Made by a program: the position numbers and the translations under genes. A DNA stretch of 64,000 bases from Dipteris shenzhenensis (Eukaryota): NCBI GenBank assembly GCA_047967505.1, contig CM106538.1; one strand, 5' to 3'. The notes under the pieces are model-generated. The model had not been told where the DNA came from, ran no database searches, and saw nothing but the letters and a program-made list of their open reading frames with translations. This document shows, piece by piece, positions 8,147 to 61,425 of this stretch (positions are counted from its first letter, which is position 1; every line of letters begins with the position of its first letter).

Positions 8147-9758
8147 CTTAGTATAATGAACAAGAGCACTAGTAGTTGCTTTCCCTATTGATCCTCTCTC
8201 TCTGATATTTTTCCTATGAATAGCAGCATGTGAAGATAACTGAAAACAGCTGCTGAAATAGAACCCCAAACCTTACTCCGTTTGCTGATCCGACTCCTCG
8301 TCTGATGCCCTGCGTGAACACCTTCCAGGAGGGCCAAGAGTTGAGGCTGGTCAGAGGCCAACTTCTTGTCAGGCCGTTCAGAAGGGGCTGGAGTGGAGCT
8401 GTAGGAGTGCTGAAGGAGGGAGGACTGAATGAGAAAAAGAGAGGGCAGCAAGGGCCTTTTATAGGGGCTGAGGAGCCAACCAACCAGCCTGGCTGTAGCT
8501 GACTGAGTAGTCGGCTATAGCCGCCTGGCTGTTGGTCTCCTTGGCCTATAAAAGCCCGTCCTTGGCTCATTTGTAAGGGAGTTTTGTGGACAGCCTTTGC
8601 AGGCTGCCTTGCTGGCTCCCTTTTGGTCCATTGGTCAGCCTTTGGGGGGCTTGATGGGGCTCCTATCCTAGGCTATGACCTAGACCTAACCTAACCTAAG
8701 ATGGAAACACTAACTACCTACTGTTCTCCAGTGGGTACTAGTAAACAAGACTAACTGTCTTAGTTGACCTAAGGTTTAGAGATTGACTTACGTAGCTTGT
8801 GCCTAACCTTTGTAAGTCATAGAAGGCCTGCAAAGCTTTGCCTGTAACTTGAACTTTCTCCCTGCGTGTCTTTACCTTCTCTAATAAATCTGTAAGAGGG
8901 GCTGCGTGTGTTGAGAATCCATCCATGTGCGAGTTGTTGGCTTGACACAAACCTGCAAAGGATCGAATCTCTTGAAATGTCGTGGGGACAATACAACTAG
9001 TGAAAGTTTGAATCTTCTCTGGATCCAATTAATCCCTTGAGCACTAATGATGTATATTAGATACTGAATTTTTAGCAATCCAACTCACTTTTCTTTGTGT
9101 TGGGGTAGAGTTGGTTAGGGCGCACTATAGGGCGCATCGCACATCCTGAATATGTTGCTCGGCTGTAGTGGAAAAGATAAGGATATCATCACTTCCCAAT
9201 ATACTCTGCAAATACCCAAGACATCATCTTGTTGAACGTTGGTGGTGCATTCTTCAGACCAAATGGCATGACGACGAACTCGTAATGAGCTCGCTCTGTT
9301 TGGAAAGCTGTCTTTGGGATGTCAGCTTCCAAAATCTGGACTTGGTGGTAGCCACTCTTGAGGTCGATTTTTGAGAAAATTTTTGCACCATTGAGTCTTT
9401 CCAAGATATACTCGATGCGGGGCATAGGAAACTTATTACTTATTGTGAGTTTGTTGAGTGCTCTGCAGTCGACACATAATCGTGCGGACTTATCCTTCTT
9501 TGTCACAAAAGAATGGGTGCAGCAAACGGCGAAGATGATGGTCTAAGAAACCCTGCGCACAGTAATTGAGACAACTGTTGCTTTAACTCCCCCTCCATAG
9601 ACTTGGAAAGCGATACGGGAACTTACTTGGAGGTGACGAATTTGGAAGCAGATCAATGCGATGGTCTTTGGGTGTGTTGGGAGGTAGCTAGGGTGGCAGA
9701 TCATCTCGTAGCATGATGTCTTTGAACTCTTGGAGTAGATACACCATAACTTGTTCTT

Positions 9759-10357
9759 GGGTGAGTTTGGGAATGTTCGTGGATTCATCTAGGTATATGC
9801 TTCTGCTGTATTAGCGGACATGCAAATTTCACCTTGTGAAGTTTTCGTCCAAGTTGCGGCCTGCTGGTATTGCGAGAATTCTTTCTATCTTAAATGGTGC
9901 GTTGCCCTATCAGCTAGATTTTAGATTTAGATGCTCGTCTGGGAGAGACTAAAATGAAATCGTTTAGACTTCACAAGCAGTTGTAGCTTGAATGAAGAGA
10001 TTTGGACTACTTTTTGATTAGCCTTCTCCTTTAGTGCTAGCCTTCGTCATGGTTGAGTTTGCCCTTCACCTCCGGAGTGCCGACAGAAACTCAGTACAAA
10101 GACTTTGTATAAATGGATGCTCAAGTATGTGTGGGTGTGTGGATTTGTATGTGTGAGAGCATACTTTTATACTATGGTCTACACCCATTGTTGGGCGCTG
10201 ATGACGTCAGTGGGGATGTCATAGTAGCTAGTCCCTGCTATGCGTGATGGAGTTTATGGTTTTCAATCTTATGAGTGACTCTCGTGAGATTGAAACTGCA
10301 CTATGTTGTGTTTTTAGAGGATGAGTTTGGGAATGTTCCTGGATTCATCTAGGTATA
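9759..10357 (+). mobile_element. Non-coding structured-RNA retro-insertion, family A (560-bp unit plus 39-bp terminal repeat)
   Basis: 9759-9797 repeats as 10319-10357; ~23-bp TSD (9736-9758/10358-10380, 3 mismatches); removal restores gypsy pol frame PPKEQVMVDLLQEFKDI; many G.U-containing hairpins. Confidence 0.85.
9791..9916 (+). ncRNA. Conserved RNA structural motif (unclassified; candidate ribozyme), copy 1
   Basis: Shares invariant loops and compensatory stems with 16801-16920 and 17069-17188. Confidence 0.6.
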
Positions 10358-11589
10358 TAGATCCACCATAACTTGCTCCTTCGGAGGAGCAGCTTGACTG
10401 CAGTAATCTAGTAGTGGACGTAAACAAGTGCACATATGGCGCGACTTGCTTGGATACAAGAGATTAACGAAATCCTTGGTATCCTCCGATCACCGCGTAT
10501 CACGGCAGGCTTAGGTAAACCTTTCACAATGGTGAAGGTGTCCAATTCCCAATTAGGGGTCGGTACATGCTCACGGAACCACTAAATCCCAAGGATCATG
10601 TCGCATCCCATCAAAGAAGTCAGAATGAAATCCTATGTAAAAATGGCCTTCGGAAGTGAAAAAGTGAAACGGATGGCCTTATGTGTGATGTGTGTGCGCA
10701 AGCCGGGTGTGAACTTGTCCACTACAAGCTAGTGAGGCACCAAGTTGCATCCCACAGTTTTGGCAAGATGAGGGGAGATATCTTCTGAACTTCCCATATC
10801 GAACAATATAATAAACAGATGCCCATCAGTTGTGCCGTATGTCGAATGGGCATCTTTTTTTGATATGAGAAGTCACCCTCCTCCTTACCTTGAAAGACCA
10901 CTGTGGGAATGACGTCCAAAGTAGGGAAGACAACATTCGTAGCTGAGGATGGAGGCGGGGTTGGAACAACCAATACATTGGCGACGTACGAAGTAGGTGC
11001 TTTTGCAGCCTTTTTGGCAAGCCACTTCGGACAATCCTTCTTGCCGTGCCCAGCAATGTGTTGGCAATGAAAGCAATGAGCTTTTGCTCGTCAGGCTATA
11101 GGTAGCCTCCCGTAATATCCACTTTAGCCTTCTCATCTGGAGTCATCTTTGGCTTGGACTCCTTTTGACCAGAAGCCTGGCCGTCTTTCTTTTAAAACTG
11201 GTTGTCCTTCTTTTGATTTTTACCGGCTGTGGTGTTTGACTACTGTGGGGATTTGGAATCCTTCTGTACCTACTTGGGCTTTCCCCCGTTCAGCATCATC
11301 TTCGGATTTTGTGCGAGAGTCAGCACCCACTCGTAATCCGGCGGGTCGAAGCTGTGGATGGTAAATCAGATGTTGATGTGCAGTCCTCAAATGAATTGCT
11401 TCATCTTGTCGCTCTTAGACACGCCTAAGTGTTGTGCCAACGTGATGACCTTGTTACTGCACGTCAACACCGGTAAACCGTTTGGGAGAGACGAGAAAAC
11501 TCATCCTCTAAGTTAAGCATATACTGGGGCAGGAGAAAACATGCTTTGAGATCGGTCACAAATGTTGTACAAACAAAATTCGTCTTAAA

Positions 11590-14500
11590 CGTGACCAGGT
11601 CAAGGTGTGAGGGATCAACTAGCATCGGTTGGTTAGATAATAGAAGGTAGACTTCGACCAGTTGGCCTTGATGGTACTTCGAAGGTTACCAAGGAGCTTC
11701 GTTACGACTGTGACTGCAGGGTAGAGGACCAAACCTCTGACTTTCGAGGAGTTGGGTCCATTACTGCTCTAGGAAGAAGCTAGGGAGAAGCTCTACAAGA
11801 ACGACAACAATGACAAGGCTCGCAAAGGATACTGCTGGCAAAGGAAAGGGAAAGCCTAATGGTGGCAAGCCCAAGAAGGATGACTCCGGAGATAAGAAGA
11901 GGAAGCAAAAGAAAAAGTGTTCTTATTGCGACAGGCCAAGCCATTTTTGCAGAAAAAAGAAGGCGGATCAAAAGAACAAGGAGGAGTCCGACTTAGATTC
12001 AGATGGTGATACAAAAGCCAAAGCTAATGTGGCAATCGGAAAACTGTTCATGGTGACATCTCCATGTGTTATTGAGGTAAAATATGCCGACCTAGAAGTC
12101 ATAGTGAAGATGTCTGACATTGAGATGTGGGCCGACGGGGAGTTAGAGACCTTTGTGAAGGTGAAGGACAGCATGGAGTGCTTGGAAACTTCCAGGTGTG
12201 CGGCTGTTGCTAGTGACACGAGGGTGGATTCCAGGGAGTGCCCTAGAGTTTTACGTTTAGATGGTGGTTGTAGTAGGATTACACAGGTTATTCGTATGTG
12301 CCTCGATGAGGTGCATGGTTTGCTTTCAAAGCAAGCAAACATGCAGTACGAGGTTCTGGGAAGGAATGGGCCTTCTTGGAAGGCAAAAGGGGAAGTGTGG
12401 GTGCTTCTTCAAATCTCAGACGCAGGTTGCTAGAAGGTGATTATGGCCAAGGTGTACTGAAGCCAGAAGAGTACTTACTTGAGAGCTCAGTAAGAGTTCG
12501 TGGTCCAAGTTATCTGGAAATATTCTTGGGATGTCATTTCTCAAGATGGTTCTTTTGTTGCGGACCTTGCCAGAGGAAGGACGGGTTGAAACAAACCCTT
12601 AGAGCATGGTGCCTAGAAGACTCCAGGTTGTTTACTCACTATGAGGGGGACAACTAGAAGAGCGTGGCGTCTGGATTGCTCGAGTTCGAAGGCGGGCACA
12701 TGAGTGGCGGTGCCATCTGGTGCTACTGAGGATGGATCTGTGTACAAGGATGGTTTGCTTGTGCAGGAGCAGCAGGAGTCCTCGGACTGCCCAAATAATG
12801 TCCTAACTGTACCCAAGATCAAGTAGGCATCTAAAAAATCAAAGCTAGGGATGGGAATCGACACCGAATTGTCCTAGAGGGTTCCAACTTGGGAGCTGTT
12901 GGGGCAACGTCATTGATGTGTTGGCATTGGGCTGAGATGTATTGGTGAGAGGGGGTGTTGGAAAGGTCACCTCCCCATCTTTAAGCCCCCAAATGAAGAG
13001 AGCGTGGGGGAGGGAGACCTAGGGCAACATGTGCCCAGAAAAGAAGACTGCCATGTGGGCAGGGATCAGAGAGAGAAATGGCGCCAGCATGGAAAGGCAG
13101 GTGTGGCCTGGGCAGGTTGTTGGCCTGCAACAAGGCCTTGAACAGGGCGCAATGGATGGCAGGTTGACAGCAGATGATAAGGTCTGGTTGAAGGGCTGGA
13201 CCAAGGCTGGAACCTGCACAAAGAAAAGGGGCTGGAGAAGGCCAGCGAAGTGGCGCATTCATGAGCAGGGCAAGGGCCTACAGGAGGGCCTGGCAGAGGC
13301 AACGGGAGGGGCTGCAAAAGCGCAGCACCCTGCCCTTATATAGGGCCATGGAACTGGCTGGTCGGCCAGATTGGTCAGACATATGGCCCAGCCCACAGCC
13401 CAGGGGGGAGTGGTGTTGGAAAGGTCACCTCCCCATTTGTAAGCCCCCAAATGAGGAGAGCGTGGGGGAGGGAGACCTAGGGCAGGATGTGCCCCAAAAG
13501 AAGAGAGGCGGGTACCTGGCTGATCTGCAGGAGCATAAGGCGGAGCAGAGGACAGCAGTAGGGACCCAAGAGAAGAGACCACTGATGACATCAGCAACAG
13601 TACGGAATAGTACAGAGCTGAGGCGCACACGTGGCAGATCAGGAGAACAGGATAAACAGGTGCTGACATGGCAGGTCAGGAGCGCAGGTGTATGGGGCTG
13701 CCAGTGGGCAGAGGCATGCCTTATATAGGCTGGGCCCTTGCCTAGATTGGAGGGCCAAAAGCTCTAAGAGTGTGGGCCATAAAGGCCTAGTTTTGTGAGC
13801 CCTTAAAGGGCTGGACCACTGGTCGGCCAGTCTGGTCAGCCAGTATGAAGCTGGCTGGTCGGTTTTCTACAGCAGGCCTTAGGGCTTATAAAAGGAGAGG
13901 CTTGTGGCCTCATTTCTCATCCAACATCCAGCAGAAAGTGGAGCAGACAGGAGCAGCCTGAAGGCATTCCCTTTGGCCTCATCTTGGAGGTAAAGGAGAG
14001 TTGAAGGAGTGCTGCAGACTGAGTTCCCTAAGGGCTGGGACCTTGGCTGTCTACTAGGGCAGCAAGGTGTTGTGATCATCATACCTTTTGGAGCAGCCAT
14101 TCACAAGCAGGTTGGAGCAGTGGAACAGGGACCTGTGTGCTGCAGACAAAGCTTGGCAGGGGCTGCCCACCTAGGCTGATTCACAGGCAGTAAGGTGGAG
14201 AAGAACACACTGGACAGAAAGTCTACAGACGCTCGAGGTGGAGCACGCGGGCTCGAGTCTAGAGATAGCCAGCAGATAGGAGAAGGACCTTGTGGTTAGA
14301 TCAGAGGACCACACCATTGGTGGGACTCTGGATCTTTCTCTCTTGTATTGTGTCCATAGTTTGGATGGAAATATATATTTTGGTGGTTTCTCTATCTGGC
14401 CGGTTCATTGTCTATTGATGAGTCTGCACATTTATTGAATGCACATAAGTAAAGAAGTTTGTGATTCCACACCCACACCGCACACTGTGTGAGCTCGTGG

Positions 14501-14682
14501 GCATTACTATAAGTCTTCCGCTGTGTGTACCCTCTGTTGGGTTATTTTCTAACAAGTGGAGCCCAAGATATAGGGATGGTGGGGGCGGTTTTTGGAGGCT
14601 GAGTGGGCACACACAGTGTGAGCTCCTGGGCTATTCTATCAGTATTCCGCTTTACGTACCCTCTGTTGGTAAATTTCTAACA
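11590..14682 (+). mobile_element. 5'-truncated gag-only (copia-type gag) LTR element with 3' LTR 12956-14682
   Basis: Gag peptides (LALMVLRRLPRSF, LTFEELGPLL, CSYC..PSH); PPT GAGAGGGGG 12947-12955; LTR TGTTGG...CTAACA interrupted by a solo LTR; start approximate. Confidence 0.8.
13414..14554 (+). mobile_element. Solo LTR (gag-only family) nested in a related LTR
   Basis: TGTTGG..CTAACA, TSD AGTGG (13409-13413/14555-14559). Confidence 0.9.
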
Positions 14683-15946
14683 GCCCTTACCGCTTCGTCC
14701 ACACCTTCTCGCCCTGATGCTTCTCCTTGGGACCATTTCACACATAGGAGAAGGGGAATCCCGTATTTCATTTCTCTCTCATATCCTATGGCAGGCTGCA
14801 TGCTGCCCATGTGGCAACCCATATTCTCGTTTTTGTCTCTGCCCAAATGGCATCTCTGTCAAGCCCTTTTCTGCCGCAGGTCCTCCCCCTCCATGTCCTC
14901 ATTTGGGGACTCACAGGTGGGGATGAATTTGGATGCTAGACAAGCAGGTCATCGAGGTAGATGGCTGCGTATATTGCTTTCAGGAGAATGCTGTTTATAG
15001 GCCTCCAAACCTTTCATCAGCAAACTGTGAATTTCTCATTATCCTTCTGCTTTGGAATCCTGTTCATAGCCTTCACATCTGCAATTCCTGGCAGGCCATG
15101 TACAATCTTTTTTGCATTCTTCTGCTGACCTTGCAAGATTACTGCTTTCAAGTTCTGGGAAAAGGCAGTCCCATGGGTGACATGGTCAACGGTGAACTCA
15201 CAATTGTTGTCGATTTGTGAAAGTCAAGCATATGCCTTCCAAGGTTACCTCTATGTCCTTATATGTGCCCTATAAATATGCTTTTGGGTTGTTAATTCTG
15301 TTGGAAAGTTTTGTTAGAATTGAAACAGCCGTATCTGATCTGCTAGAATGCAGATCTCCCAGAAGATTAACTTGAGAAAAATGTGGGCTTGTATGTGCTT
15401 AAAATTGATGTACAATGTATTGCAGGAAAATTCGATAGTAGATGACCCTGATAGGATGCTTTCCTACAACTATGTGTCAATGAATTCTCAGATCTACCTA
15501 ATGAGCTGTGTCCTAAAAGAGAACCCGATCGTTCAGTTATCTTGGAAAAGGAACAAAGCTAGTTAATAAGGTTTCATAACGGGTCATTCAGGTCGCAAAA
15601 GGCAAGGTTGCGAGGTACAGTCAGAAAGACACAAGCAATCTCCTTTTGTCATGTGGAAGGGTCATTCAGATTATGAGGATAATTTGGCTGCTTCAGCTTT
15701 GTAAGATTTGTAATCATCTGCAATTCAATAACATGGGTTGCATATAATCATCAAAATTGAAACACGCTAAGATTGATTCACATGTCAATTAGGAAATTTC
15801 TTCCTTTAAAAAAAAACTTAAAGTCCATACTTTCCAGTTTTCCACCGCTGCAATGAGCTGTCTCAGGTGTATCTCTTTTTTCATAAGAGCATGTGACGAA
15901 TGTTTCCAGGCTTCATTATCATTTGGTATTTGAATGGTGTTGACAG

Positions 15947-16183
15947 GGTGATGTTGAATCTATTGCATCAAAGAGTCCAAAGGAGTTAACAGCCCTTTTT
16001 GAGCAAATATCTGGTTCAGACGAGTGTAAGAAAGACTATGAAGAATTGGAAGTACGCAAAGCTCATGCAGAGGAGAAGTCAGCATTCGCATACCAGAAAA
16101 AAAGGTCCGTGGCTGCTGAGAGAAAGCAAAAGAAAGAACAGAAAGAAGAAGCAGAGAAACATCTTCGCTTACAGGGTGAGCTG
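15947..16183 (+). CDS. SMC1: SMC1 exon ([15 protein letters not shown]...[10 protein letters not shown])
   Basis: AG/GT bounded, 237 bp, conserved SMC1 peptide after the Q-loop. Confidence 0.93.
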
Positions 16184-19100
16184 GTATGATAACAAGCCTA
16201 TTTCCATGGACGGCAATTGGTACAATTTTGCATAATAGTAAAATACCTAGTACACTCATAGTGCGGTGTTGGGATCTCGTCTTGTGCGCACATTCGTTCA
16301 AGTCAGCCAGTCCACATACTTTTTTGGCCCTGCAAGGGTCCTAAGGGATGATGGTTAGTGAGTTGCTAATCAAGGGCCATAGTTTTGAAGTTAGTTCATT
16401 TGGTCAATTTGACCTTGCAAATTATGGCTAGTATGAGGCTTAAATGTGGGTTAGTAGAAGTTTAAGGGCTCCTAATGTGTTTAGGGTTTAAGGTTTTTGT
16501 TTGCTTGTGGAGGTCCTAAATGTTTTTGTCTTTTATCCTAAAGCTTTTGTCTTTTGTTAAGTATTTCTCTCTAAAGATGGAGGCTCTCTTTGTCTTTGTA
16601 TGACACCACATTTATATTAGTCTTGCCATGTCCCCACTTTTATTTAATGGCCCATCCACCACACTGTTAGAAAATACCCAACAAAGGGTACACGCAGCGG
16701 AAGACTTATAGTAATGCCCAGGAGCTCACACAATGTGTATGTGGGGTGTGGAATCACAAACTTCTAAATTTGTATGATTGGACTTATTCTAGTCTTACAA
16801 AGGTATATTTTTCTATCGCCTTAGCGGACATGCAAATTCTTTGAATTTTCGTCCAAGTGGTGATCAGCTGTTCAACTACATCGTTTTGTCTTACGCGGGT
16901 GCAGAAGCCCCAACAGCTAATCTTATTCTCATTTATTCTTATTATTATTTTAATCTTTTTGTTTATTATTTTTTTTAATTTTTAATTTTGTCTTTCTTTG
17001 TAGATTTTTTATCTTTAGAACAACAAAAATTCTAAATTTGTATGATTGGACTTATTCTAGTCTTACAAAGGTATATTTTTCTATCGCCTTAGCGGACATG
17101 CAAATTCTTTGAATTTTCGTCCAAGTGGTGATCAGCTGTTCAACTACATCGTTTTATCTTACGCGGGTGCAGAAGCCCCAATAGCTAATCTTATTCTCAT
17201 TTATTCTTATTATTATTTTAATCTTTTTGTTTATTTTTTTTTTAATTTTTAATTTTGTCTTTCTTTGTAGATTTTTGATCTTTAGAACAACAAAAATTCT
17301 AAATTTGTATGATTGGACTTATTCTAGTCTTACAAAGGTATATATAAAACTTCTTTACTTATGTGCATTCGATAGATGTGCAGACTCATCAATAGACAAT
17401 GAACCGGGCAGATAGAGAAACCACCAAAATATATTTCCGTCCAAAACTATGGACACAACAAAAGAGAGACAGATCCAGAGTCCCACCAATGGTGTGGTCC
17501 TCTGATCTTACCACAAGGTCCTTCTCCTATCAGCTGGCTATCTCTAGACTTGAGCCCGCGTGCTCCACCTCAAGCCTCTGTAGACTTTCTGTCCAGTGTG
17601 TTCTTCTCCACCTTACTGCCTGTGATTCAGCCTAGGTGGGCAGCCCCTGCCAAGCTTTGTCTGCAGCACACAGGTCCTTGTCCCACTGCTCCAACCTGCT
17701 TGTGAATGGCTGCTCCAGAAGGTATGATGATCACAACACCTTGCTGCCCTAGAAGACAGCCAAGGTCCAGCCTCTAGGAACTCAGTCTGCAGCTCACCTT
17801 CAACTCTCCTTCACCCCTAGTGTGAGACCCAAGGGAGTGGCTCCTGGCTGCTCCTGTCTGCTCCACTTTCTGCTGGATGTTGGATGAATAATGGGGCATG
17901 AAGCCCCTCCTTTTATAGGCCTAGGGGCCTGTCAAAAACCTGACCAGTCTGTCCCAATCTGGGCCGACTGGACAGACCAGGTTGGCTGGCCCAACCGACC
18001 TGGTTGGCTCAGCCCAACCAGCCCTTTAAGGGCTCACAAAACTAGGGCCCTTTGGCCCACACTTCTAGGGCTTTTGGTCCTCCAATTAAGGCAAGGTCCC
18101 AGCCCTATATAAGGGCCCTAGCCAGGCCCTTTTGGGCTGCTGCTGGAGACTCTATTGCAGGCTGTACTCCTGCCCATAGCCTCTGCCATCTGCCCTGTAT
18201 CTTTCTTCATGCAGGTGCCTTCCTGCTGCAGCATCCTTGCCTCCTGCCAGGCCTTCACCAGCCCCGTACAGCCACGTATGCATACCGTGCCCTTCCGTAC
18301 TGCTGCGCCGTCTGTCCTTGCTGGAAATCCCTGCGCAATCAGGCTGCTGCAGGTCCCTGATGTCTACATGTCTGCCCTGTACATCGGGAGCTCCATGACT
18401 TGCCAGGTACCCTTCTTTCTTCTTTTGGGGCACATCCTGCCCTAGGTCTCCCTCCCCCATGCTCTCCTCATTTTGGGGCTTACAGATGGAGAGGTGACCT
18501 TTCCAACACACACACACACACACACACCCCCCCCCCTTTTCACCTCTTTTCTCTCCTCTCTTTCACTCATCTATCTTTCCTGATATTCCTTCACCTTCTG
18601 TTGCTCTTTCTCTTTTCCTTTCCTTCCAATTTACACCTATCGTTTCCTTTCACAAGTTATTCAAAATATTTATTGAGCTACTTACACTGGGACTTATAAT
18701 GACACTCCAAAAGGCAGGGCCATAGTGGGATCCCCACCTTGTTTGTTGTAATGCATCAAAGATGAATTAAGTAGCTTTTGTCCTTACACCAAGAAAGAAT
18801 GTGGGATCATTGGTGTAAGTCTTTAGGTGTGAGCTCTGGAAAGATTTATTTTTTGGAAAATAACTAGAATTCTAGTACTACCTCATGGTGAATAGGATGT
18901 TTCAAGAGGAACTAGAGTAAGTACAATAGAAGTATATACCCTTACAATGTAATATTTGCATTAAGAGTTTGTCGGGTTAACTAGGGTCCTACAAAAATGC
19001 ATTCTAAGTATATATTATATAAGATCTAAATATCTTAGTTCTCTCCTTAAACGTGTCAAAGTGTCTCATTAAAGGTGATATTTATTTTGACATCTCACCT

Positions 19101-22100
19101 CTCTCATAGAAGCTTGCAAAGCTATTAGATGCACCTTTAGTCCCACTATTGTGTTTGGTATGGATAGTTCCTTTATTGTGTCTGAGATTAGTACTAAATC
19201 ATCTGCATAGAAATAGAAAGCTTGCAAAGTTGTTAGATGCATTTATCCACGATTGTGCTTGGTATGGATAGTTCCTTTATTGTGTCTGAGATTAGTACTA
19301 AATCATCTGCATAGAAATAGAAAGCTTGCAAAGTTGTTAGATGCATTTATCCACGATTGTGTTTGACATTGGTTGACTTTGAGAGTGAAGGAGGGGTGAG
19401 AGGGGGCTGAGAGGGAACTGAGAGAGGGAGGGCTGAGAATGAAGGGGAGGCTAGGGCTGAGAGAGAGCTGCAGAAGGGAAAAGGATGAGAAGAGCTGATA
19501 GAGGGCTGAGTGAGGGTTGAGAGAGGGCTCACCAAGGGCTGAGAGAGGCAAGGTGTGCTAACTAAGGGCTGAGTGAGGATTGAGCTGAGAGAGGCAAGGG
19601 GCTGAGATTGTGAGAGAGCAAGACTTGAGAGCTCTGGTAGACCAAAGCAAAGGCCTATCCAAAGGAGTTGCGTGCAGCGGACAGCATCTGGAGGCACCAA
19701 AAAAATGAAAACCCCCATAGCCAAAAACATCCCCAAAAAAAAAAAAGAAAAAAAAAAGGGAATTCCGAAAGTCCCAAAAAAAAACACACAAGCGCACCTT
19801 ATGATTTGAAGCGTTTCCAAAATGCCCTGAAAACTTTGAATGGCACCTTATGTTAAGGTGCTCGCACCGAATTAACCATGATGTGGATTGTGAGAAAACT
19901 AGAAAAAGCAGGTTTGGAAAAGCTATAGAAAGCTAAAAAAGCAATTTCTAGCATCTTAGTTTTTAACTGCAGTATTTAGTTAGTTATTTCTGAATAAGAA
20001 GAGTATTTTGTACTCAGTTTAATGTTGTAATTATGTCTTTTAAAAATTTAATTAATTATTCTACGTCCTTTAAAATCTTTGTCCATGACCCCTCTACCCA
20101 TGCAATTATATTAGTAGCCTAGGTTTGCTAGGCTCAGAACTTGACCTAGAGAACTCTGAAGCCATTCTTTAGACCTCGACGTGCCCTAACTAATGTGCAT
20201 GTGAGCGATCAAGGTGTTGATCCTGGTTCTGAAGATTTGCCTCACGGTTAAATACTACCTACCCTCATTAAGCCAAAGCATCGTTTCCCAACACACTGAG
20301 GCTCACCCCCAAAGCCAAACTGAAGGTGTTAGGAATAAACCATGAGAAAAACCTTGTGGATGTGTGAAGCATTATCAGTCTTGTACGGCATGTTGATAAT
20401 TGAATATAGTCAAATGACCCATAACTTCACTAATCTGAAGTACATCTTATGCACCGGATGTGACTATCATGGATACTAAAGATCCATTACCATATTGTAG
20501 ATGGTGTAAACAAGACCATACTGAAGATGGAAAAAATAGGTCATACTCGATGGTAAATTTATATTGAAGATGACAAATCACTCGGAAGGTGATAGATCAC
20601 TCTGAAGAAGATAGAGTCACACTGAAGGTGACATGGATACACCGAAGGTGTCATGGACACACTGAAGGATGGTGATCGGAGCATGTCCAAACTGTACATA
20701 ACCATGCGCACAGGATTTCTAGAAGATAACCAGCCAAGGTATGAACTCTTGTCACAAGAACTCACACAAAGAAAATGAACATATGGTCATAAGTAAAGCA
20801 AATGGAAATAGCCTTCTCCTTTAGTGCTAGCCTTTGTCATGGTTGAGTTTGCCCTTCACCTCCGGAGTGCCGACAGAAACTCAGTACGAAGACTTTGTAT
20901 AAATGGATGCTCAAGTATGTGTGGGTGTGTGGATTTGTATGTGTGAGAGCATACTTTTATACTATGGTCTACCCCCACTGTTGGGCGCTGATGACGTCAG
21001 TGGGGATGTCATAGTAGCTAGTCCCTGCTATGCGTGATGGAGTTAATGGTTTTCAATCTTATGAGTGACTATTGTGAGATTGAAACTGCACTATGTTGTG
21101 TTTTTAGAGGATGAGTTTGGGAATGTTCCTAGATTCATCTAGGTATAGGATATCTAACAATGATCCATAAATGTATCGGAGACAAAGTGTAGGCCAGCTG
21201 GCATAATGAGTACCGGCTCTTGTCAAATCAGCGATGTCACACCGTGAACTTGAGATGATATTTTTTAGCGCACACCTTTTCTTAGTTTGATACATGCACA
21301 ATATATAAACGTATATGATAATGCTTTTGATAAGATAATTTTTTTGGGTTTCTTTTTAGGTTATGCTATCATAATATGTGTGGTGTAATTTTTTATTCTT
21401 TTTTCTTATGTGCAGAAATCTTTGAAAACTGAGTATTTTCTCTGGCAAATGTACAATATTGACAAAGATATTGAGAAAACTCAAGCAGAGTTGGAGATTG
21501 ATCAGAAAAACCTTCAGGAGATTAACAAGGCGCAAGAGCAATTAGAGCTTGAAGTCAAGGAAAAAAAGAAAGAACAATCTGTTTTTACGAAGGATGCATT
21601 GCTTTGTGAAAAGAAAATTGCAAGAAAGAAGGCTGAACTGGATAAAAAGGTGTGTATGCTACTTCTGAACCCTTTTCTAAAAAAGTTTACTCTCTTGGAG
21701 TAATTGTTGTGAGCAGTCCTTTTGGCAAGGGTACGAAATCTTTGGTGGCTATGTTTATTGCTGGCTGCTCTGCTGTCTCTAATTTGGAAAGTTACTGATT
21801 CGACTTTTAAGTAAAGTAACACTATATTTGGGTACCGGTGTCTGGGGCCCTTTAAACAGACATACACACTTGTCCTTGGTTCTAAGATTGTTTGCGATCA
21901 TTACAGGTTGCCTTTTGGAATTTCTGTCATAATCTCCAAACCTTATCTTCTTAGTTTATGTGTTTGGATGGTGCAGCATCCTGAAATCCTGAAGCTGAAG
22001 GAAGAGATTACGCGGATAACACAGAAGATAAAAAATAGTGAAAAGGATTTGGAAAAGAAGAGGGAAGAGCAGAAAAAGCAGAGGAAGGAAATTTCTAAGC

Positions 22101-24461: not shown

Positions 24462-27400
24462 GAGAGAGGGGGGAGGTTGTCAGTGTCTTCAGAAGGCCAA
24501 AATGTCGCGGATGCCTTAATCAAGACTCCTGGGATTTATGATACCTTTGGGTCACGGTTTATTTGATCCTTGTGGGATTTTCCTATTGTGTCCTTGAAAA
24601 ATGGAGAAAGAAAGAAAGAAAGAAAGAAAGTTTATAGAAGTCTTTGAAAGACCATAGGGTCTATGAGACTTCATCATCACTCTACAATGAATATAACATA
24701 ATCAAATCACATCAGATTATGAGTGGTGTGGTGTGAACACACCCTCGGGGCACGTTTCCCTCTAGTTAGGAGATTGTTCTCCCTAGGGTTGGTATTAGGG
24801 TTCGCTTCTTTGTAGAGGATATCTTCTTAAGGGGGAGAAAATGTTACATCAATATTAGGTTAGATAATTAGGAATTAAAGACAATGGTCTTTGCTGGTTA
24901 GGCCTAAGTGGCTTAAGGGGCTCATAGTGCCCAAATAGGACATGTAGCATTGTTAGTATAACTAGATGTGTCTTCTAAGATACATTAGGTAAGTGGCCAT
25001 TGGACTTAGGGGTGGCAGATGGTACACCTAGTATGTTCTAGTAGTTGCTAGGACCCAAGTGAACTGCTGAGGCAACTTTTAGGTCATCTATTCCTATGCT
25101 TGTTGTGTGAACATGAAATCCTCCCCCATAAAAAACCGCAGAGACACTCTCATTTCTCTCCCTCTATCCCTCTCTCAACAGAGACACTAGGGCCGAGGAC
25201 AATCGTTCGGCTGGACCCCCCGAAGGTTTTTATTACTTGAGAGAAAACTGAGTACAAGAGTTCAGCGTGGAAGCTGTTCATACAAAAAATCCAAACGTGA
25301 ATAAATATTACATGAGCTCTAAGGCTCCCCTTCTTGGCAACAAGCCACTTGTCAATTTCTACATTACTTTCCTAATTACATGCCACTAAGGGCAACTCTG
25401 GAGTCTTTGAAGCACTTGGTCACGCGAATCGCCTCCTAGACTCTTGTTAGGCTCCCGTGGCGCTTAGGAAAATAACTCTTCCTAGTACCTACAACAATTA
25501 ATTAAAGCGCACCTACCATGGTACCTATTAATTGTTAGCGCTTTGCATGCAAATAACACACTGTGGACTAATTCTAGTCACGGTGGGCATCCCCACTGAA
25601 CACATGTGCACACATAACAAGTGTAAAAATACATGTTTATTCTCGAGTTGACGAAAGTCAACACTCTTGATCATAATTAAGGGCTTTGACCAAGGGTCGA
25701 GGCGCCTTAATTATAGTCAAGTCTCTCCAACCGAAGTTGGCACATCTTGGTTAATTGTAGTTAACCCTCTTGGCGCATGCCAAGTCTCGTTGGCTGAAGT
25801 CAACACTCTCTGACTGTGGTCAGCTCTGTGGTTCTTTGGTTAACTGCAGTTAACCCTCTTGGTAATAAACCAAGTCTTCCCGACTGATGTCAGGTTTATT
25901 GACCAGAGTCATATATCTTTGACCGTAGTCAATTCTTTGACCATAATTAAGACGGATAAAAACTCTTTAATTATGATCATATAAATGGTCAACTGTACTT
26001 TGACTTAGGATATTTACATTGTGGTGACATCCCCTCGGCTTCTATTCAGTTGACCTCAATTGAAAAGCTTCCTTGTAAACATCCAAAAGCTGTGGATGAT
26101 CGGATAACATGTTTTCATCCATCCACTTGGCATCTAATGCCGTATAATTCTTGAATTTTACAAGATACCTGTAAAACTCCTTGCCCTGAGGGCCTTTGCG
26201 TACAGTATGGTACACAATCTGCTCTGGCGGAAGGACCTCCTCCAGCTCATCCACTTCTGGCGGATCCTCTAATACTAGCTCTGTAGGCTCTGGCCCTTGA
26301 AATTTCTTCAGAAGACTCACATGGAATACATTGTGAATCCTCCAATGCTCTGGCAATGCCAACCTGTATGCAACTTCATTTATTCTTTCTATAACCCTGA
26401 AAGGGCCATAATACTTGGAAGATAACTTTGCATACACTTTTTGTTTGCCTTTAAACTTGTGGAGCCTAGCTTTCTCGAACTTTAAAAGTACCCAATCCCC
26501 TTCCTTGTAGAATTTGCTACTTCACTTTGACCATCTGTCTGGGGATGGAAAGACGAAGATAAATTCAAATTCGTCCCCATGTTATTAAATAAAGCTCTTT
26601 AGAATAGACTGGTCATTCTGGGATCTCGATCACTGACAATGGACTTAGGCATACCATGGTACTTAAAAATCTGCGCCATGAAAAGCTTAGCCATATGATC
26701 TGCCTTTATGGTTTTGCGAACCGGAATGAAATGAGCTTGCTTGCTGAATCTATCAATGATAGTCCAAATGCCATCATTCCTGACTTTGATCTTGGCAAAT
26801 AAAAAATGAAGTCCATTGTAATTGATGTATATCTTTCCGTATCCTAGTGCTAGAACTGTTGCTGTAATTCCTCTATGTCCAGCATAGGGAGGTGCATGGC
26901 ATTCCCCCAAAATCTTTTTCCTCATCTCTTGGGTGATGCATAGGCAGTCATCTTTCATTAGATACCCATCTTTCAGGGAATAGTGATTGGTGGACTGCCC
27001 CTCTTGCATTTGCTGTAAAATCTCACCAAAATCTGCATCATTAGCATATTGCTCCCTCATGCCTTCTAGGTCCTGATGATAAGCAATAGTCACATTGTTG
27101 ACCTGGGGTCTTCGGGACAAGGCATTTGCCACTCTGTTCCGAATTCCTGGGGTATGCACAATCTGAAAATGATACATTGACAGCATACTTGCCCATTTCA
27201 TATGCTTCTCAGAAAGCTTTGTCTGAGTTAGAAAATATCTCAGACTTTGGTGATCTATTTTAACAGTAAAATGTGCACCCAAAAGATAATGCTTCCATGT
27301 GTTCACAGCATGAACTACAGCCAACAATTCTTTTTCATAGATTCCCAGATATCTTTCAGCATCACGCAATCTTCGGCTCTCGTATGCTACTACATGTCCA

Positions 27401-30400: not shown

Positions 30401-33400
30401 CCAGTACCGGGCTGCCGTCAACTCAAGGCATATACCCACAAAGTTGCCAAGGCATCAACAACTATATTGTCCCTTTTCTGGCTACTGCAAAAAGCACTGA
30501 GTATGCATCTGATTCCCTTTTCCTGAGCACACAGGCATGCATCCCTTTACTTGTCCAAATCTCTGATTTTTCTCTGGTTTCTGCTTTTTCTGACAGTAAA
30601 TGCTTTCTCAGATAGGTGAAAACTGTTAGCAGAAACAGTCCTTGCAACTTTTTTTTTTCTTGGGGGGGGACAGTAACCAGATGGGTAACTACTGGTTACT
30701 CTAACCAGACTGACTGGTTCTGGTCTGGTTAGTCTGTGACTGGATAGTTACTGTCTGGTCAAACTGACCAGACTGGTTCTGTTATGGTCTGGTTTGGTTG
30801 GGCCAGCTAACTGGACCTCTGACCAAAGTCCAGCTAGCTAGAGTTACACTAACCACGGGTTAGCCACCTGTCTGCCACGTGTCAGTGCCATGTCAGCATC
30901 TGAGCTGGCTGCCACATGTACTGCCACATCACCTGAGTACTTCGCCACCTGGCTGCCACGTGTACTACCACGTCAGCACCACACGTGTGTGCACCACGTC
31001 ATTTGCTGAACTGCCACGTCATCTGTTGCCTGGCTAGGTGCCACATCTGAGAGGGGGAAGAGAGGTGGAAAGGGAGCAAGAGAGTGAGAGTGAGAGAGAG
31101 AGACAATAGTGCGGGTGTGAAGTGTTGAGTGAGCCACACCACAAACTCACTTAAGTTTTATTAGGATTAGGTTTACCCTATGACTGTCTTAAGACAGTCA
31201 TAGGTGTCCTAACTTTAATTCTTTAATATAAGGGTAGGCAATGTGCCTTTACCCCAACAACCTCCCACCTAAAGGCCAATGTGCCTAAAGGGGAGAAAAG
31301 AATAAAAATACAGCAATATACAGTTACTGTATACAAGACCATAAAGTAAGAATGGTCTCATCCTAATCCCATGATGTGGCGGCAATGTGCAAACCGCTCT
31401 GTAGGCAAGCTCTTAGTGAGCAAATCTGCAGGATTATCATCAGTATGTACTTTCACAAGCTCAAGACGCTTGTCTTCCAGTACCTCCCTGATAAAATGAT
31501 ATTTCACTTCTATGTGCTTGGTCTTCTGATGAAAAACCGGATTCTTTGCCAACATGATAGCACTCTGACTATCACAATGCAAAACTGGCATATCTCCTGT
31601 AATGCCCAAATCTTTCACCAGCCGAGTAAGCCATATTGCTTCCTTGCAAGCCTCAGTGGCTGCAACATATTCAGCTTCTGTGGTTGATAGTGCAACGCAT
31701 TTCTGCAACCGTGACACCCATGATATAGCACCTCCTGCAAATGTAAAAATATAACCGGTAGTAGACTTCCGGTTATCTGCATTGCCTGCATAGTCTGAAT
31801 CTGTAAAACCATGCACCAAAGCATCCTGCCTACCATAGCATATGCACAAGTCTTTGGTACCTTTGAGATACCTCAAGACACCTTTCACTGCTTCCCAATG
31901 CCGCTTGCCTGGATTTGCCATATACCTGCTGATAACTCCCACCGCAAAAGCAATATCCGGACGAGTGGCAACCATGGCATACATCAAAGATCCAACTGCA
32001 GATGCATACGGAACCTTGGCCATTTCAGCCTTATCATCATCTGATCTGGGGCTGTCCTTACTGCTGAGTTTTAAATGTGGAGGCAACGGGGTACTAATGG
32101 ACTTCCCCCCCTCCATTTTAAACCTCTGCAGTACTTTGTCAATGTACTCTTTCTGTGACAGAAACAAAAGTCCCTTGGACCTGTCACGAGTAATACGCAT
32201 GCCAAGAATATGATTTGCATCACCCAAGTCTTTCATGTCAAAAGACTGATGCAGTTGTTTCTTCAAAGCACTAATCTCATGCTGAGATTTACTGGCAATA
32301 AGCATGTCATCCACATATAGAATGAGTAGCATCAAACTGCCATCCGTTGCCCGTTTGGTGTACAAGCAATGATCGGTCTCACACCTATGATACCCTTGGG
32401 ACTGCATGAATGCATCAAACTTCTTGTACCATTCTCTTGGTGCCTGCTTGAGTCCATACAAGCTCCTTTTGAGCTTACACACAAGCTGCTCTTTCCCTTT
32501 AACAGCATATCCCTCTGGCTGACTCATATAGATCTCATCATGGAGATCTCCGTGAAGAAAAGCTGTCTTCACATCCATCTGACATAAATTCATGTCAGCA
32601 TGAGCAACAAGAGCCAACACTGCTCGCAAAGTAGTCATCTTGACTACAGGGGAAAAGATCTCATCAAAGTCAATGCCCTTCTCCTGCTTGAAGCCCTTGG
32701 CAACCAATCTGGCCTTATACCGAGGTAAATCATTTGAATCCACTTTGACTTTGTAAACCCACTTGCATGGCAAAACTTTTCTGCCTGCAGGTAACTGCAC
32801 CAAGTCCCATGTATCATTCTGAAGTAGAGAGTCCATTTCTGACTGCATGGCTTTCTCCCACTTCTTTTTCTCTGTTCTTCCCATAGCTTCCTTGAAGCTG
32901 GAAGGCTCACCACAATCTGTCAGCATGATAAAATCAGCCACATTATTGGCTCCTGGAACAAACCTGACAGGAGGCCGTTGTGCACGGGTGCTCCTCCTAA
33001 CAAACTGTTCCGGATTAGGCTGCTGTCCAGCCTGGTCTTCATGCATAACAGGTGGCTGTACCACCGTATCTGGCTGTTCTACAGCCCCATCAGTTGGCAC
33101 ATCCAGTGGTGCATCATTGGCAAAATTATCTGGCTGATTTTCAGCCTGTATACCCTCTTGAACAGGGTGATCTGCAGCAGGCTGCTGCTGCATATAAATG
33201 GGCATTCTTTGCTGTCCAACATCATCATAAATAACCCTCCTGTATTCCACAGGTTGCACGGGTTCCTTGTGTACACTATCTTCTTTAAAGATGACATCAT
33301 TGTTGCGTATAATCTTCCGTTTAACGGGATCCCATAACCTGTACCCCATTTCACCTTCATCACCATATCCCATAAAGATGCATCTGATAGACTTTGGATC

Positions 33401-36400
33401 CAGTTTGGTGCGTAGATCTTTGCGTACATGAGCAAAGCACTCGCAGCCAAAGACCCGTAAGTGCTTATATGAGGGTGGCTTGCCAGACCACACCTCCTCT
33501 GGCACTTTCAACTCCAAAGCCTTATTTGGTGACCTGTTAATAATGTGAATTGCTGTTTGCACGGCTTCTGCCCAAAAGCCATGGGGTAATGCAGCATAAG
33601 ACAACATACATCGAACCTTCTCCTGAATAGTTCGATTCATCCGCTCACTGGCACCATTTTGAGATGCATTATGAGGAGCTGTGAGTTCCTGTTTGATGCC
33701 CTTAGCTTGGCAAAACTGCACAAAAGCATGTGACACATACTCACCCCCATTATCGGATCTTAGGCATTTCAGCCTACGACCTGTCCGATTTTCAACCTGA
33801 GCGACAAATCTCTTGAAAGCATTTAGGGCATCTCCCTTATGCTTCAAGAAATATACCCACACCTTACGTGTGGCATCATCAATGAAAGTAATAAAATATT
33901 TGGCACCCCCTAGTGATAACTGTGGCATCTCACACAAATCAGTGTGCACTAGATCAAGTGGTGCTCTATTTTGGGGAGTTCTCCTCTTATGAGGAGTCAC
34001 AGAATGCTTGCCAAAAATACAATGATCACAAGTAGGCAAATCTGAAAAAGAGAGAGGCGGCAGATAACCCAAACGTGACAGTTCTTGCATTCCCATAACA
34101 GACATGTGTCCCAACCGGCTATGCCACAATGAAACCTTTGGCAGCTCGGTTATGGCAACAACATGATTACCCACACTGGAAACATAAAGAGGGTACAAGG
34201 TATCACTCTTAAAACCCTCAGCCACTACTGTCTGGCCATCAGTAATCACCCATTTGGAATCCCCAAATGTGGTGTGGTAACCACTGTCATCTAATAAGCC
34301 AGTGCTAATCAGATTTTTCTTGATTTCCGGCACATGGCGAACACCATCAAGCATAAATGACTGTCCATCAGGAAATACTATCTTTATACTGCCAATCCCT
34401 GCAATCTGACATGCATAGTTGTTCCCAAGATGAACAACTCCATGAGTACCTGTGTAGGAGGTAAACCACTCCCTATGAGGTGTAACATGAAAAGAGGCAC
34501 CTGAATCCAAGAGCCAGGTGTGCATGTCATGGCCATCAATAACCAAAGCATGTGCTATTACAGCAGAAGAGCATAAAACATCATGTATGTCACTGTCACT
34601 GTCCTCTGCTGCAACATTCACTGCATCCAATTCAACTATCTTGGCCTTGCCTTTGCCTTTGCTTGCATTTCCTGCATCTTGTGTTTCAGCCTTCTTGGCT
34701 TTCTGATCCCGTATGAACTTGAAGCACTTCGACTTCACATGTCCCTTCTTGCCACAATAAAAGCATTCAATGTCCTTTTTGCCACGGGACTGACTGCGGG
34801 ATCTGGACTTACTAGCAGATCTCCCCTTCTGCTGAGTCCTGCCTCTATCCTGTACCTGCAAAGCATTTGAAGACTTGCTGCCCGCATTATTCTTCCTGCT
34901 CATCTCCTCCATAAGGAGAGAGCTCTCTACATCAGCATAAATAAGAGTGGCATTTGAGTTTGACAGGGTGGTCTTGAAAGTGTCCCAACTCTCAGGGAGG
35001 GTACACAACAAGAAAGTGGCCTTGAACTCCTCATCAAGATTCAACCCCTGTGCAATCAGCTGTGTAAAGATAGCATTGAACTCACTCAAGTGTGAGGTCA
35101 TAGCTGTACCTTCCTTCATGCGAAGATCGACCAGCTTCTTCAGCCAATAAACCTTACTGGCTGAGCTCTTTTGGGCATACAATTCCTCTAGTCTCTGCCA
35201 TAGACCATAAGAGGTCTTTTCAGCCTGTACATTGAACACAAGAGTGTCTGAAATAGTAAGCATAATAGCTGCCCTCGCAGACAAATCAAGCTCTTCCCAA
35301 TCATCAGCTGCCATATCAGATGGCTTGACACCCTTTACCCTTATGGGCTTAGCAATCTTCTTTAACAGAAGAACATTCAAGCACTGTTCTGCCCATAATG
35401 CATAGTTATGTGCTCCTTCCAGTTTCTTTATGTTCAGAATTGAAGAATCACCTCCTCCTGATGCCATATCAGATGAGGAAAATACCTGACTCCCTGGAAG
35501 TAAAAAAGACTGAATAATAAAGTTCTGATTTCTCAGAAAAGCCTGCTCTATTCAAGAGCCAGTAGCACTCTCAAAAGTGCTGTTTTTACTGTTAGTAAAA
35601 TCTGCAGCAAAACAGTAAATGTCCCTGCAAGTACTGTACCTTCTGACAAACTGTTCTGTGCTCAAAGAGGCATAAAAAACAGTAATTTCAGACTGCTGCT
35701 GCTGCTCAACAAGAGCTTAACAGTGCATAATTATCTGACAAAACCACTCAGACTGCTGTAAACACTGCTGTACTGACTGTACTGATCACTTCTCCCACCT
35801 CAGATGAGGTATGTCACTGTCTCAAATTGCAGAAAATACTTGACTGACACCCCAAAAACAGTAAATGACTCTTCAGCCTGTCACACAAAACCTGCAACAG
35901 GAAATGGGATAAATCCCAAGCAATCACCCTTATACCAAGGGGAGAAAATGCATCTGAAGATCTCTGTTGGTAACCCAAGTGCAATCAAACAAAGTCTGGG
36001 CAAAAGCCCCTTGATCTGACACCTGAATCAAGTGGAGGACACCTCAACAATGAGGTAGCATGCAATATGAAAATCTCTCTGACTCTTGTACCTGACAATG
36101 TGCAAAGCATAGACTGCCTCTGTGTACTCAGTAACAACACAAACCACAAAGTACAAACACCCAGAAGAAAATCTTTTGAGCACTGTCAACGATGGGCAGT
36201 TAGGGACCGAGTAAACTCGATGCGCCCTGACCAAGCGTGGCTCAACTGAGATTTTCAGAGTGTGTACAAAGAATGTGACCTGCAACAAATGTCACCAAAT
36301 GCACTGCGGAAATAAAGCAAATGTGTGCTCCCTGGCTACACACTGCCTCAAGGCATAGACTGCAAACACATCTAGGCAAAAGCCCTTTGATAATTTCACT

Positions 36401-50507: not shown

Positions 50508-50899
50508 GTGTGTCGATACAGGTATGGATATGTATTAGTAAACACATGCACATGTGTGTGCGCGAGCGCACACGCAATCATTTGCATTTTGAGTGATTTA
50601 TATACAGAAACATCATTTTCATGCGATGACGAATGCAATCATTGATAAATCTTTTCGATATAAAAAGCTTGGAGACTAGCAATCTATTGTTGGTAGTATT
50701 CACAATATTGCCAGTAATAAATTTTGTGGCAAATGTACATTTACTGCTAGTACAAGGACCATTATCACCATTAAATGCCATTGCTACCAATGGCAAAATT
50801 AGTGAGAAATTGAACTATTATAATAGTACTGTTATCAATGGTAATGGGACTATTATGCCGGTTGGGGAAAAAAAGAAGACAAAAAGAATGGTAAATAAA

Positions 50900-61000: not shown

Positions 61001-61425
61001 TCTCTACTGCTAAACCACACAGCAAAGTCGAACAAACCCAACCTTCAATAGATCAGAACTCTAAATGCACCTGACTGAACAGGAGTCACCCTCCTTGCAA
61101 GGGCACTGTCCTCTAGTCGTGGAAGTCGATTCCCAAGAGCCTCTGAATCAGGGTTGTCGTTCAGTAAGGTCCCTGCCTTTAGGCTTCCACACCTATGAGC
61201 CTCTTACTTGGGCTCTGATACCATGTTAGAAATCGACCAACAGAGGGTACGCACAGCGGAAGACATAATATAGCCCAAGAGCTCACATAGTGTGTGTGAG
61301 GTGTGAAATCACAAACTTCTTAAACTTATGTGCATAGGATAGATGTGCAGACTCATCAATAGACAACGAACCAACTAGATATAGAAGACACCAAAATAAT
61401 ATATTTCCGTCCAAAGCTATGGACA
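58019..61425 (-). mobile_element. Gag-only LTR element (3' LTR 58019-59168, ~2-kb internal region, truncated 5' LTR from 61224)
   Basis: PBS TGGTATCAGAGC 61212-61223; PPT next to 59169; copia-type gag (KLDWSNYPIWKVK...) with no PR/IN/RT/RH; 78-bp internal tandem duplication at ~59575-59730. Confidence 0.88.

Follow-up and report, generated by a model that had tools for sequence, protein, structure and literature searches.

Locus and layout of the insert

We analysed a stretch of 64,000 nucleotides (nt) from the fern Dipteris shenzhenensis (contig CM106538.1 of assembly GCA_047967505.1; hereafter the window, with position 1 as its first letter), in which a preliminary description, made from the letters alone, had noticed a short head-to-tail concatemer inserted into a solo long terminal repeat (LTR) of a plant genome. 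The window carries exons of SMC1 (15923-16183, 21416-21649 and further ones out to 46653, as mapped by tblastn with the Adiantum protein) and, because such exons lie on both sides, the LTR and the concatemer within it are placed in an SMC1 intron, on the sense strand of the gene. The plant host is borne out by an SMC1 exon of 92 amino acids (aa), which has its best named matches in Adiantum ferns (95%; Ceratopteris 88%, conifers 88-92%). The remainder of the window is made up of gypsy and copia elements and one decayed L1-type long interspersed nuclear element (LINE). In what follows we refer to the concatemer (a 581-bp insert) as the mini element, and to a longer relative that lies upstream of it as family A.

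The mini element (16766-17346, delimited by sequence reading and a script) is bounded on both sides by AAACTTCT, and consists of a 43-nt module (A) that alternates with the rest of the unit (B) in the order A(43)-B(225)-A(43)-B(224)-A(43)+ATA, that is, units of 268 and 267 bp and a terminal partial unit of 46 bp (Table 1). Tandem Repeats Finder describes the array (16758-17343) by a period of 268, 2.2 copies, 98% matches and a score of 1128; the head-to-tail concatemer with an 8-bp target site duplication (TSD), given in the preliminary description as '45 bp + 2 x 268 bp', is this same layout read from the other end. Within every unit we distinguish a 43-nt module (hairpin plus GGTATAT), a folded domain of 114 nt and a spacer of 111 nt with 62% T, and the G+C content of the mini element is 29%. 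The three copies of A show no difference across their 43 nt (AAATTTG...GGTATAT), and the two full units are separated by three substitutions and one 1-base indel (1.5%).

When the sister LTR (reverse-turned) was aligned to the host LTR minus the insert, an 8-nt gap was the sole difference at the site, so that the sister LTR carries a single AAACTTCT (14453-14460, - strand), as had been claimed. This octamer is also single in a third copy of the LTR (near 61310), and a fourth copy (near 58110) is deleted at that place. The 581-bp insert is a real insertion, with a clean 8-bp TSD and a documented empty site. At its 5' junction the unit end (AAAAATTCT) and the left target (AAACTTCT), each standing before AAATTTG, match at 7 of 8 positions and share the TTCT microhomology that had been pointed out from the start; at the right junction three bases (ATA) are unexplained.

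Table 1. Positions of the mini element, its relatives and the surrounding repeats in the window
Feature	Coordinates	Strand	Remarks
Left copy of 8-bp TSD	16758..16765	+	AAACTTCT; single in sister LTR
A1, 3' module of upstream unit	16766..16808	+	Hairpin + GGTATAT; 5' end of insert, 3 nt before hairpin base
Unit 1, folded domain	16809..16922	+	TTTTCT linker, helix a (ATCGCC/GGTGAT), motif with helix b and hairpin c, helix d with inner hairpin
Unit 1, T-rich spacer	16923..17033	+	62% T, 14% G+C, ending ...AAAAATTCT
A2, 3' module	17034..17076	+	Hairpin + GGTATAT
Unit 2, folded domain	17077..17190	+	C-to-T at helix d turns G-C into G-U
Unit 2, T-rich spacer	17191..17300	+	
A3, 3' module	17301..17346	+	Extra ATA, giving tail GGTATATATA; 3' end of insert
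Right copy of TSD	17347..17354	+	AAACTTCT
Family A	9761..10358	+	Upstream-unit 3' module 9761-9798 (38 nt); folded domain from 9799; motif 9811-9854; hairpin 10319-10350; tail to 10358
Left target duplication of family A	9737..9760	+	~24 nt; gypsy pol coding, peptide EQVMV
Right target duplication of family A	10359..10384	+	~24-26 nt
Third copy	20809..21147	+	Limited to the 3'-terminal 339 bp of family A (97.6% to 10019-10357); end ...CTAGGTATA; same SMC1 intron as mini element
Host LTR of mini element	16665..18508	+	TGTTAG...CCAACA; CACAC on both sides; probably solo; inside SMC1 intron
Sister LTR	13412..14554	-	Copy with empty site

Relatives of the mini element

With the unit as query, BLAST and nhmmer recovered one related stretch in the window (9783-9917, E ~4e-7), which belongs to family A, and the view that the mini element is a minimal version of this 598-bp element was upheld: its parts stand in the same order (a 3'-module copy, a domain with identical 18- and 13-nt motifs, a body and the 3' module), and it amounts to one unit plus a short piece (~38-40 nt) of an upstream unit. 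Family A breaks the pol frame of a gypsy element on the - strand, ~24 nt of which is found on each side of it (19/21 in local alignment; EQVMV encoded twice), and has the microhomology GG at its 5' junction. For the third copy, in which the 5' part is missing (one of three copies), we found no convincing flanking duplication. No further copies were recovered from the window beyond these three loci by blastn and nhmmer with both elements or by two terminus patterns. The flanking duplications (8, ~24 and 0 nt) rule out a fixed-stagger integrase or transposase. The preliminary description had named two outcomes that would speak against it, namely that all other copies be monomeric or that the flanking repeat not be reproduced at other loci: among the two other copies in the window neither is multimeric, family A is flanked by a duplication, of ~24 rather than 8 nt, and the third copy has none.

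The similarity between 10019-10357 and 20809-21147 could also be taken for an LTR pair, which we rejected (no TSD, wrong ends, and a - strand gypsy gag/protease together with an SMC1 exon in between). As a separate observation, the body of family A and its 339-bp copy contain the heptamer CTGATGA, a hammerhead core word (10198-10204 and 20987-20993, + strand), within the palindromic TGACGTCA; its reading as a hammerhead was discarded, there being no GAAA within 80 nt and no hammerhead match in Rfam. A further observation concerns the boundary of A and B, where AG/GTATAT (the slash marking the boundary), together with the T-rich spacer that ends in TTTCTTTGTAG, is similar to the 5' site, U-rich body and 3' site of a plant intron (16804-17003, + strand) in sense orientation to the host gene; AG/GTATAT is present in family A as well, but without the U-rich body.

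A shared 3' end and a covarying RNA fold

All three copies have a common 3' end (GGTATATATA, GGTATAT(A) and GGTATA, i.e. GGTATA(TA)n with a tail of variable length) that stands directly after a stable hairpin. These 3' hairpins (mini element, family A and third copy) have predicted energies of -11.3, -16.8 and -18.2 kcal/mol (z -2.7, -4.5 and -4.6; 3, 0 and 0 of 200 shuffles as stable), are unlike in sequence between the two subfamilies and contain several G-U pairs in both. Moreover, the two insertions with TSDs (9761 and 16766) start at a distance of 0-3 nt from the hairpin's 5' base in the upstream unit, and a start within 3 nt of the hairpin base at both would occur about once in 25 times by chance, given two random break points.

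These termini bear on the possibility that no transposition took place, and that tandem-repeat DNA or an extrachromosomal circle was captured as filler DNA during the repair of a staggered double-strand break. The microhomology at the left junction and the three unexplained bases at the right one would suit such a capture, yet at three separate loci the end falls on one and the same point of the unit, the second locus (family A) also has a flanking duplication, and the covariation and G-U pairs described below argue for an RNA stage; we hold this origin to be very unlikely.

The preliminary description had resolved each unit into a hairpin, a conserved motif and a U-rich spacer, and this division withstood closer inspection: to the hairpin z-score and the T content of the spacer given above is added the motif TTAGCGGACATGCAAATT...TTTTCGTCCAAGT, which has three sites in the window both for its 18-mer and in its gapped form (0.08 and 0.04 expected, respectively). 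The motif lies in a domain of which the + strand minimum-energy folds of the mini element and family A, computed independently, have the same architecture, while those of the - strand do not. Six nt after GGTATAT a first helix (ATCGCC/GGTGAT in the mini element, GCTGTA/TGCGGC in family A) encloses the invariant motif, a second helix (GGAC/GTCC) and a hairpin (with a longer stem in family A), and is followed by a helix with an inner hairpin. Across the 20 proposed pairs and three rows of the alignment, standard pairs occupy 60 of 60 cells, and four pairs are changed on both sides; the observed values are reached by 3 of 500 shuffles, and sliding the partner by 1-3 columns leaves 18-53% paired. 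Helices a, c and d of the domain contain G-U pairs, which, together with the G-C to G-U difference between the two units, favour an RNA of + polarity. In the fold of one whole unit (z -1.55) the 111-nt spacer is largely unpaired (~110 nt).

Origin of the insert

Taken together, these observations suggest that the mini element could well be the outcome of one insertion event of a small, non-coding and non-autonomous fern retroposon, made by target-primed reverse transcription and inserted as more than one unit, an interpretation which we adopt with evenly balanced confidence. We read the insertions as target-primed reverse transcription of a + strand RNA because they combine a defined 3' end and reiterated tail, variable TSDs, 5' microhomology, one 5'-truncated copy and covariation of the RNA type. 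In the mechanism that we infer, including that RNA is copied from a multimeric template with an internal start, what the folded domain does and which enzyme acts, the unit as + strand RNA would consist of the ~114-nt folded domain, a filler (the 111-nt U-rich stretch in the mini element, roughly 400 nt in family A) and the hairpin with GGUAUA(UA)n behind it. A reverse transcriptase (RT) supplied in trans would prime on the nicked target, and the cDNA would begin at GGUAUAU, right after the hairpin, and run back through more than one unit; such a multimeric template may come from read-through transcription of a donor in tandem or partial-tandem form, or from a jump of the enzyme to a second RNA. 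The end of the cDNA would be joined to the other side of the staggered break via microhomology (TTCT in the mini element, GG in family A), the fill-in of the stagger would give rise to the flanking duplication (8 bp and ~24 bp, respectively), and the short upstream copy of the 3' module would represent a 'pseudo-LTR', as in Penelope-like elements. Since it would lie just downstream of the start site in the multimer, the folded domain is a candidate enzyme-binding site. The enzyme itself may be of the Penelope-like type or that of a stringent LINE, which we consider about equally probable; the L1-like LINE of the window, with its poly(A) end, does not fit as the driver.

The same retroposon could also have been inserted as an A-B-A monomer, with the second unit added later by unequal crossing-over or by replication slippage between the 43-bp A repeats, and on balance we regard this as a possible but doubtful course of events. 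It is consistent with the only other TSD-flanked copy (family A), which is a monomer plus a terminal repeat, with the four differences between the units, which imply time to diverge, and with the LTR-int-LTR-int-LTR arrays documented for Cassandra among small plant elements, those of ferns included (PMC7215508). Against it stand the mere 43 bp of homology that would be at the disposal of recombination, and the fact that multicopy head-to-tail insertion at integration has been described for the closest analogues (PMC8557442).

Several observations weigh against a single multimeric insertion by target-primed reverse transcription. The 1.5% difference between the units fits a dimer at integration and a later duplication equally well. 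The window offers three loci only, which lie within 12 kb of one another on a single strand, and as these sense copies lie in or near one gene, + strand RNA would exist as pre-mRNA anyway. The folded domain is unexceptional in its energy z-scores (-1.4 and -0.8), the covariation derives from two independent sequences only, and the structure was derived from the sequences on which it was tested. No RT partner with this 3' module was found in the window, where the only LINE remnant is L1-like, ends in poly(A) and is without the GGTATAT hairpin module. Land-plant Penelope-like elements have been reported for conifers and Selaginella only, not for ferns, in the accessible text of PMC8557442. Furthermore, no copy with both halves of the motif was found in metagenome, prokaryote-genome or viral collections; the 18-mer alone occurs at 14 metagenome loci, none of which (0) has the second half, and these loci are for this reason taken as chance matches.

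Comparison with Penelope-like elements and stringent LINEs

Partial-tandem insertions that form pseudo-LTRs, as well as multicopy head-to-tail ones, are known from Penelope-like elements, their non-autonomous derivatives included (PMC8557442; PMC11167929), which we regard as a nearer parallel than retrozymes; their TSDs measure 8-10 bp or are absent, and their 5' junctions show microhomology (PMC3846280). Both arrangements are found here inside flanking duplications (A-B-A-B-A in the mini element, A-body-A in family A), and so are TSDs that vary (8 nt and ~24 nt) or are absent, 5' junctions with microhomology (TTCT and GG) and 5' truncation (one of three copies). Insertions exceeding one unit are the hallmark of Penelope-like elements, and the mini element would, by analogy, work most like a non-autonomous, pseudo-LTR-forming retroposon. 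Among the non-autonomous elements of the Chlamys type, those of Chlamydomonas (including MRC1; PMC8557442) likewise combine a partial upstream copy (pLTR), head-to-tail insertions of several copies, and some 5' truncation. The anole Penelope-like element initiates reverse transcription internally, at a stem-loop within a multi-copy RNA, and the required RNA region is located 3' of the start (PMC11167929), which parallels the start of the cDNA beside a stem-loop, with a structured region downstream in the multimer, proposed for the fern elements.

The fern elements differ from those of the Chlamys type in that their host is not among the groups reported in the available parts of PMC8557442, in that the unit measures just 268 bp and the pseudo-LTR is only a hairpin module of ~40-43 nt, and in that neither inverted copies nor a 30-40-bp 'tail' were seen at the fern loci. 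An ORF (open reading frame) combining RT and GIY-YIG was not found among the 30 window ORFs scanned. The hammerhead that canonical Penelope-like clades carry in the pseudo-LTR is not present here; a canonical hammerhead is also absent from the Naiad/Chlamys clade, according to PMC8557442.

The second candidate for the enzyme leads to the stringent pairs formed by a LINE with a short interspersed nuclear element (SINE). In such pairs (e.g. the eel UnaL2/UnaSINE1), the partner RT recognises a 3' stem-loop together with a short tandem tail. The fern copies are alike in their 3' hairpin and reiterated (TA)n tail of variable length, in the variable TSDs and in the one 5'-truncated copy, and differ by insertions longer than one unit and by the lack of a polymerase III head, a polymerase that the T-runs would stop. 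The head of a LINE-dependent SINE (tRNA, 7SL or 5S) was accordingly not recognised, as the window has no (0) tRNA-like genes, the elements have no Rfam match, and the unit contains runs of 5-10 T on the RNA strand.

Comparison with retrozymes

The preliminary description had likened the mini element to the non-LTR retrozymes of animals while remarking that it has no hammerhead. The latter point stands: the core CTGANGA is absent on both strands of the mini element, and Rfam returned no family at the gathering score in the whole window and none at E<=10 in three focused scans. A hammerhead candidate spotted by eye on the - strand (CUGAUCA...GAAA near 16860) was rejected (it has another base at the core G, is unable to form helix I and is missing in family A), and so were, by inspection, a fold like that of the hepatitis delta virus (HDV) ribozyme (no double pseudoknot fit, no J4/2 strand) and a hairpin-ribozyme fold (the loop sequences differ). 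The likeness itself was retained as regards the layout (short tandem units and a TSD), and was lost as regards the defining ribozyme, which is absent, and the unit, which is not highly self-paired.

Animal non-LTR retrozymes (PMC7229834; bioRxiv 10.64898/2026.07.22.740005) resemble the fern elements in their short tandem units (170-400 nt), low G+C, lack of LTRs, of a primer-binding site (PBS) and of any polypurine tract (PPT), and TSDs of >4 bp when present. They differ in having a hammerhead in every unit and animal hosts, and their unit-length circular RNA is highly self-paired (PMC7229834), a degree of pairing that the fern unit does not reach. A plant counterpart of these elements, in which an otherwise unrecognised self-cleaving RNA would release the unit, which would be circularised and turned into tandem cDNA by rolling-circle reverse transcription, appears to us quite unlikely. 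The 268-nt unit, the 29% G+C, the tandem form and the TSD of >4 bp are all in keeping with PMC7229834, the conserved and covarying RNA domain belongs to no known family, and both TSD-flanked insertions consist of n units plus one 3' module with the same start, a pattern that a leaky block at the ligation junction would give. The negative searches for a hammerhead core and for any Rfam ribozyme family speak against such a counterpart, as do helices that fit neither the HDV-like double pseudoknot nor the loop pattern of the hairpin ribozyme and the ~110 nt of the unit that are unpaired, in contrast to the 'highly self-paired' circles of PMC7229834.

Unlikely as well is a fern counterpart of animal non-LTR retrozymes or Penelope satellites in which the hammerhead would have been swapped for a covarying RNA of ~110 nt, located 6 nt after GGUAUAU and either self-processing or RT-recruiting. 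Under this assumption, unit-length RNAs of 268 nt (linear or circular) would be the templates for rolling or multimeric reverse transcription, and the 3' hairpin base, at which both TSD-flanked insertions begin, would correspond to the processed end of the RNA.

The LTR retrozymes of plants (PMC4918200) have in common with the fern elements that they are non-coding, non-autonomous, hosted by plants and provided with direct terminal repeats. They are characterized by LTRs of 300-400 bp with type III hammerheads, a tRNA-Met PBS, a PPT and 4-bp TSDs (PMC4918200), none of which is seen here. On these grounds (a 43-nt terminal repeat, no hammerhead, no PBS, and TSDs of 8 and ~24 nt) we did not assign the mini element to them.

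Comparison with LTR-type and DNA elements

A miniature element of the LTR type (TRIM, SMART or Cassandra-like), whose LTRs would be very short and whose integration would be due to the integrase of an LTR retrotransposon, with arraying at a later time, would account for the A-B-A-B-A pattern and the small size in a window where gypsy and copia elements abound. Cassandra and TRIM arrays are similar to the mini element in their small size, their plant (including fern) hosts and their repeat-spacer-repeat-spacer-repeat form (PMC7215508), and differ from it by 5S boxes, PBS, TG..CA ends and a 5-bp TSD, all of which are missing here. The TSDs of 8 and ~24 nt are not those of 4-6 nt that such an integrase would leave, and the elements end in AAAT..ATAT and TAGC..TATA, not in TG...CA. 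A tRNA-Met PBS was seen at or beside the small elements for none of the seven window matches (0/7), all of which lie at the LTR retrotransposons of the window. The Cassandra 5S box A, box C and their linked pattern (motifs as given in PMC7215508) had 0 matches on both window strands, and no polypurine tract stands by the repeats (8-11 purines in the 20 nt upstream, two TSD-flanked elements). Moreover, the 5' repeat of family A corresponds to the last ~40 nt of a would-be 339-bp LTR, and yet it abuts the target duplication. We consider this explanation extremely unlikely and already largely refuted.

Other classes of elements were likewise set aside. A hAT-type DNA transposon, suggested by the 8-bp TSD, was rejected, as neither end (AAATTTGTATG... 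and ...AAAGGTATATATA) is an inverted copy of the other and the related family A has a duplication of ~24 nt. The presence of a TSD led to the rejection of Helitrons (for which a CTRR end is missing too) and of DIRS-type elements, and a geminivirus or satellite origin was dismissed since the hairpin loop is without the nonanucleotide.

Significance

Fern mobile elements other than LTR retrotransposons have hardly been described, and in the literature we found no small pseudo-LTR-forming or retrozyme-like element in ferns; the mini element probably represents a new family of small RNA-copied elements. If the family is dispersed, it would provide a very small (268 bp) model for RTs that start inside a multimeric RNA and build head-to-tail insertions, and would extend this style of insertion in land plants beyond the conifers and Selaginella, the groups named in the accessible part of PMC8557442. 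The clean, covarying RNA fold could be tested for enzyme binding or self-processing. Should there be only a handful of local copies, the mini element would be a curiosity of one intron.

Host gene and surrounding elements

The SMC1 (cohesin) gene spans >30 kb (15923-46653, + strand); tblastn with the Adiantum protein assigned residues 143-1217 to exons and recovered no exon from the window for residues 1-142. Its introns contain the solo LTR, a chromovirus-type gypsy element, an apparently intact copia element and the small elements. The CACAC on either side of the host LTR probably fits a solo LTR, though the right flank is a (CA)n run. The copia element (31048-37333, - strand) has an uninterrupted gag-pol frame of 1397 aa (31358-35551), 99%-identical repeats (31048-31264 and 37117-37333) and a tRNA-Met PBS (37103-37114), looks like a young insertion, and is nested between 92%-identical gypsy repeats (25113-26029 and 37888-38815). 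In the decayed L1-type LINE (48443-50508, + strand), the sole non-LTR retrotransposon remnant seen in the window, we recognised an endonuclease-like frame (GDFN...SDH), a zf-RVT domain (49813-50304) and a short poly(A) (~50499-50508), and found no recognisable RT core.

Between the solo LTR and the third copy of the small elements, the SMC1 intron contains a 104-bp tandem repeat (2.5 copies, 93% matches, 19106-19365, + strand). Furthermore, end fragments of the sister-LTR family are clustered upstream of the SMC1 exon at 15923 (12954-13047, 13412-13504, 14453-14554 and 14608-14683), which suggests rearranged or nested copies.

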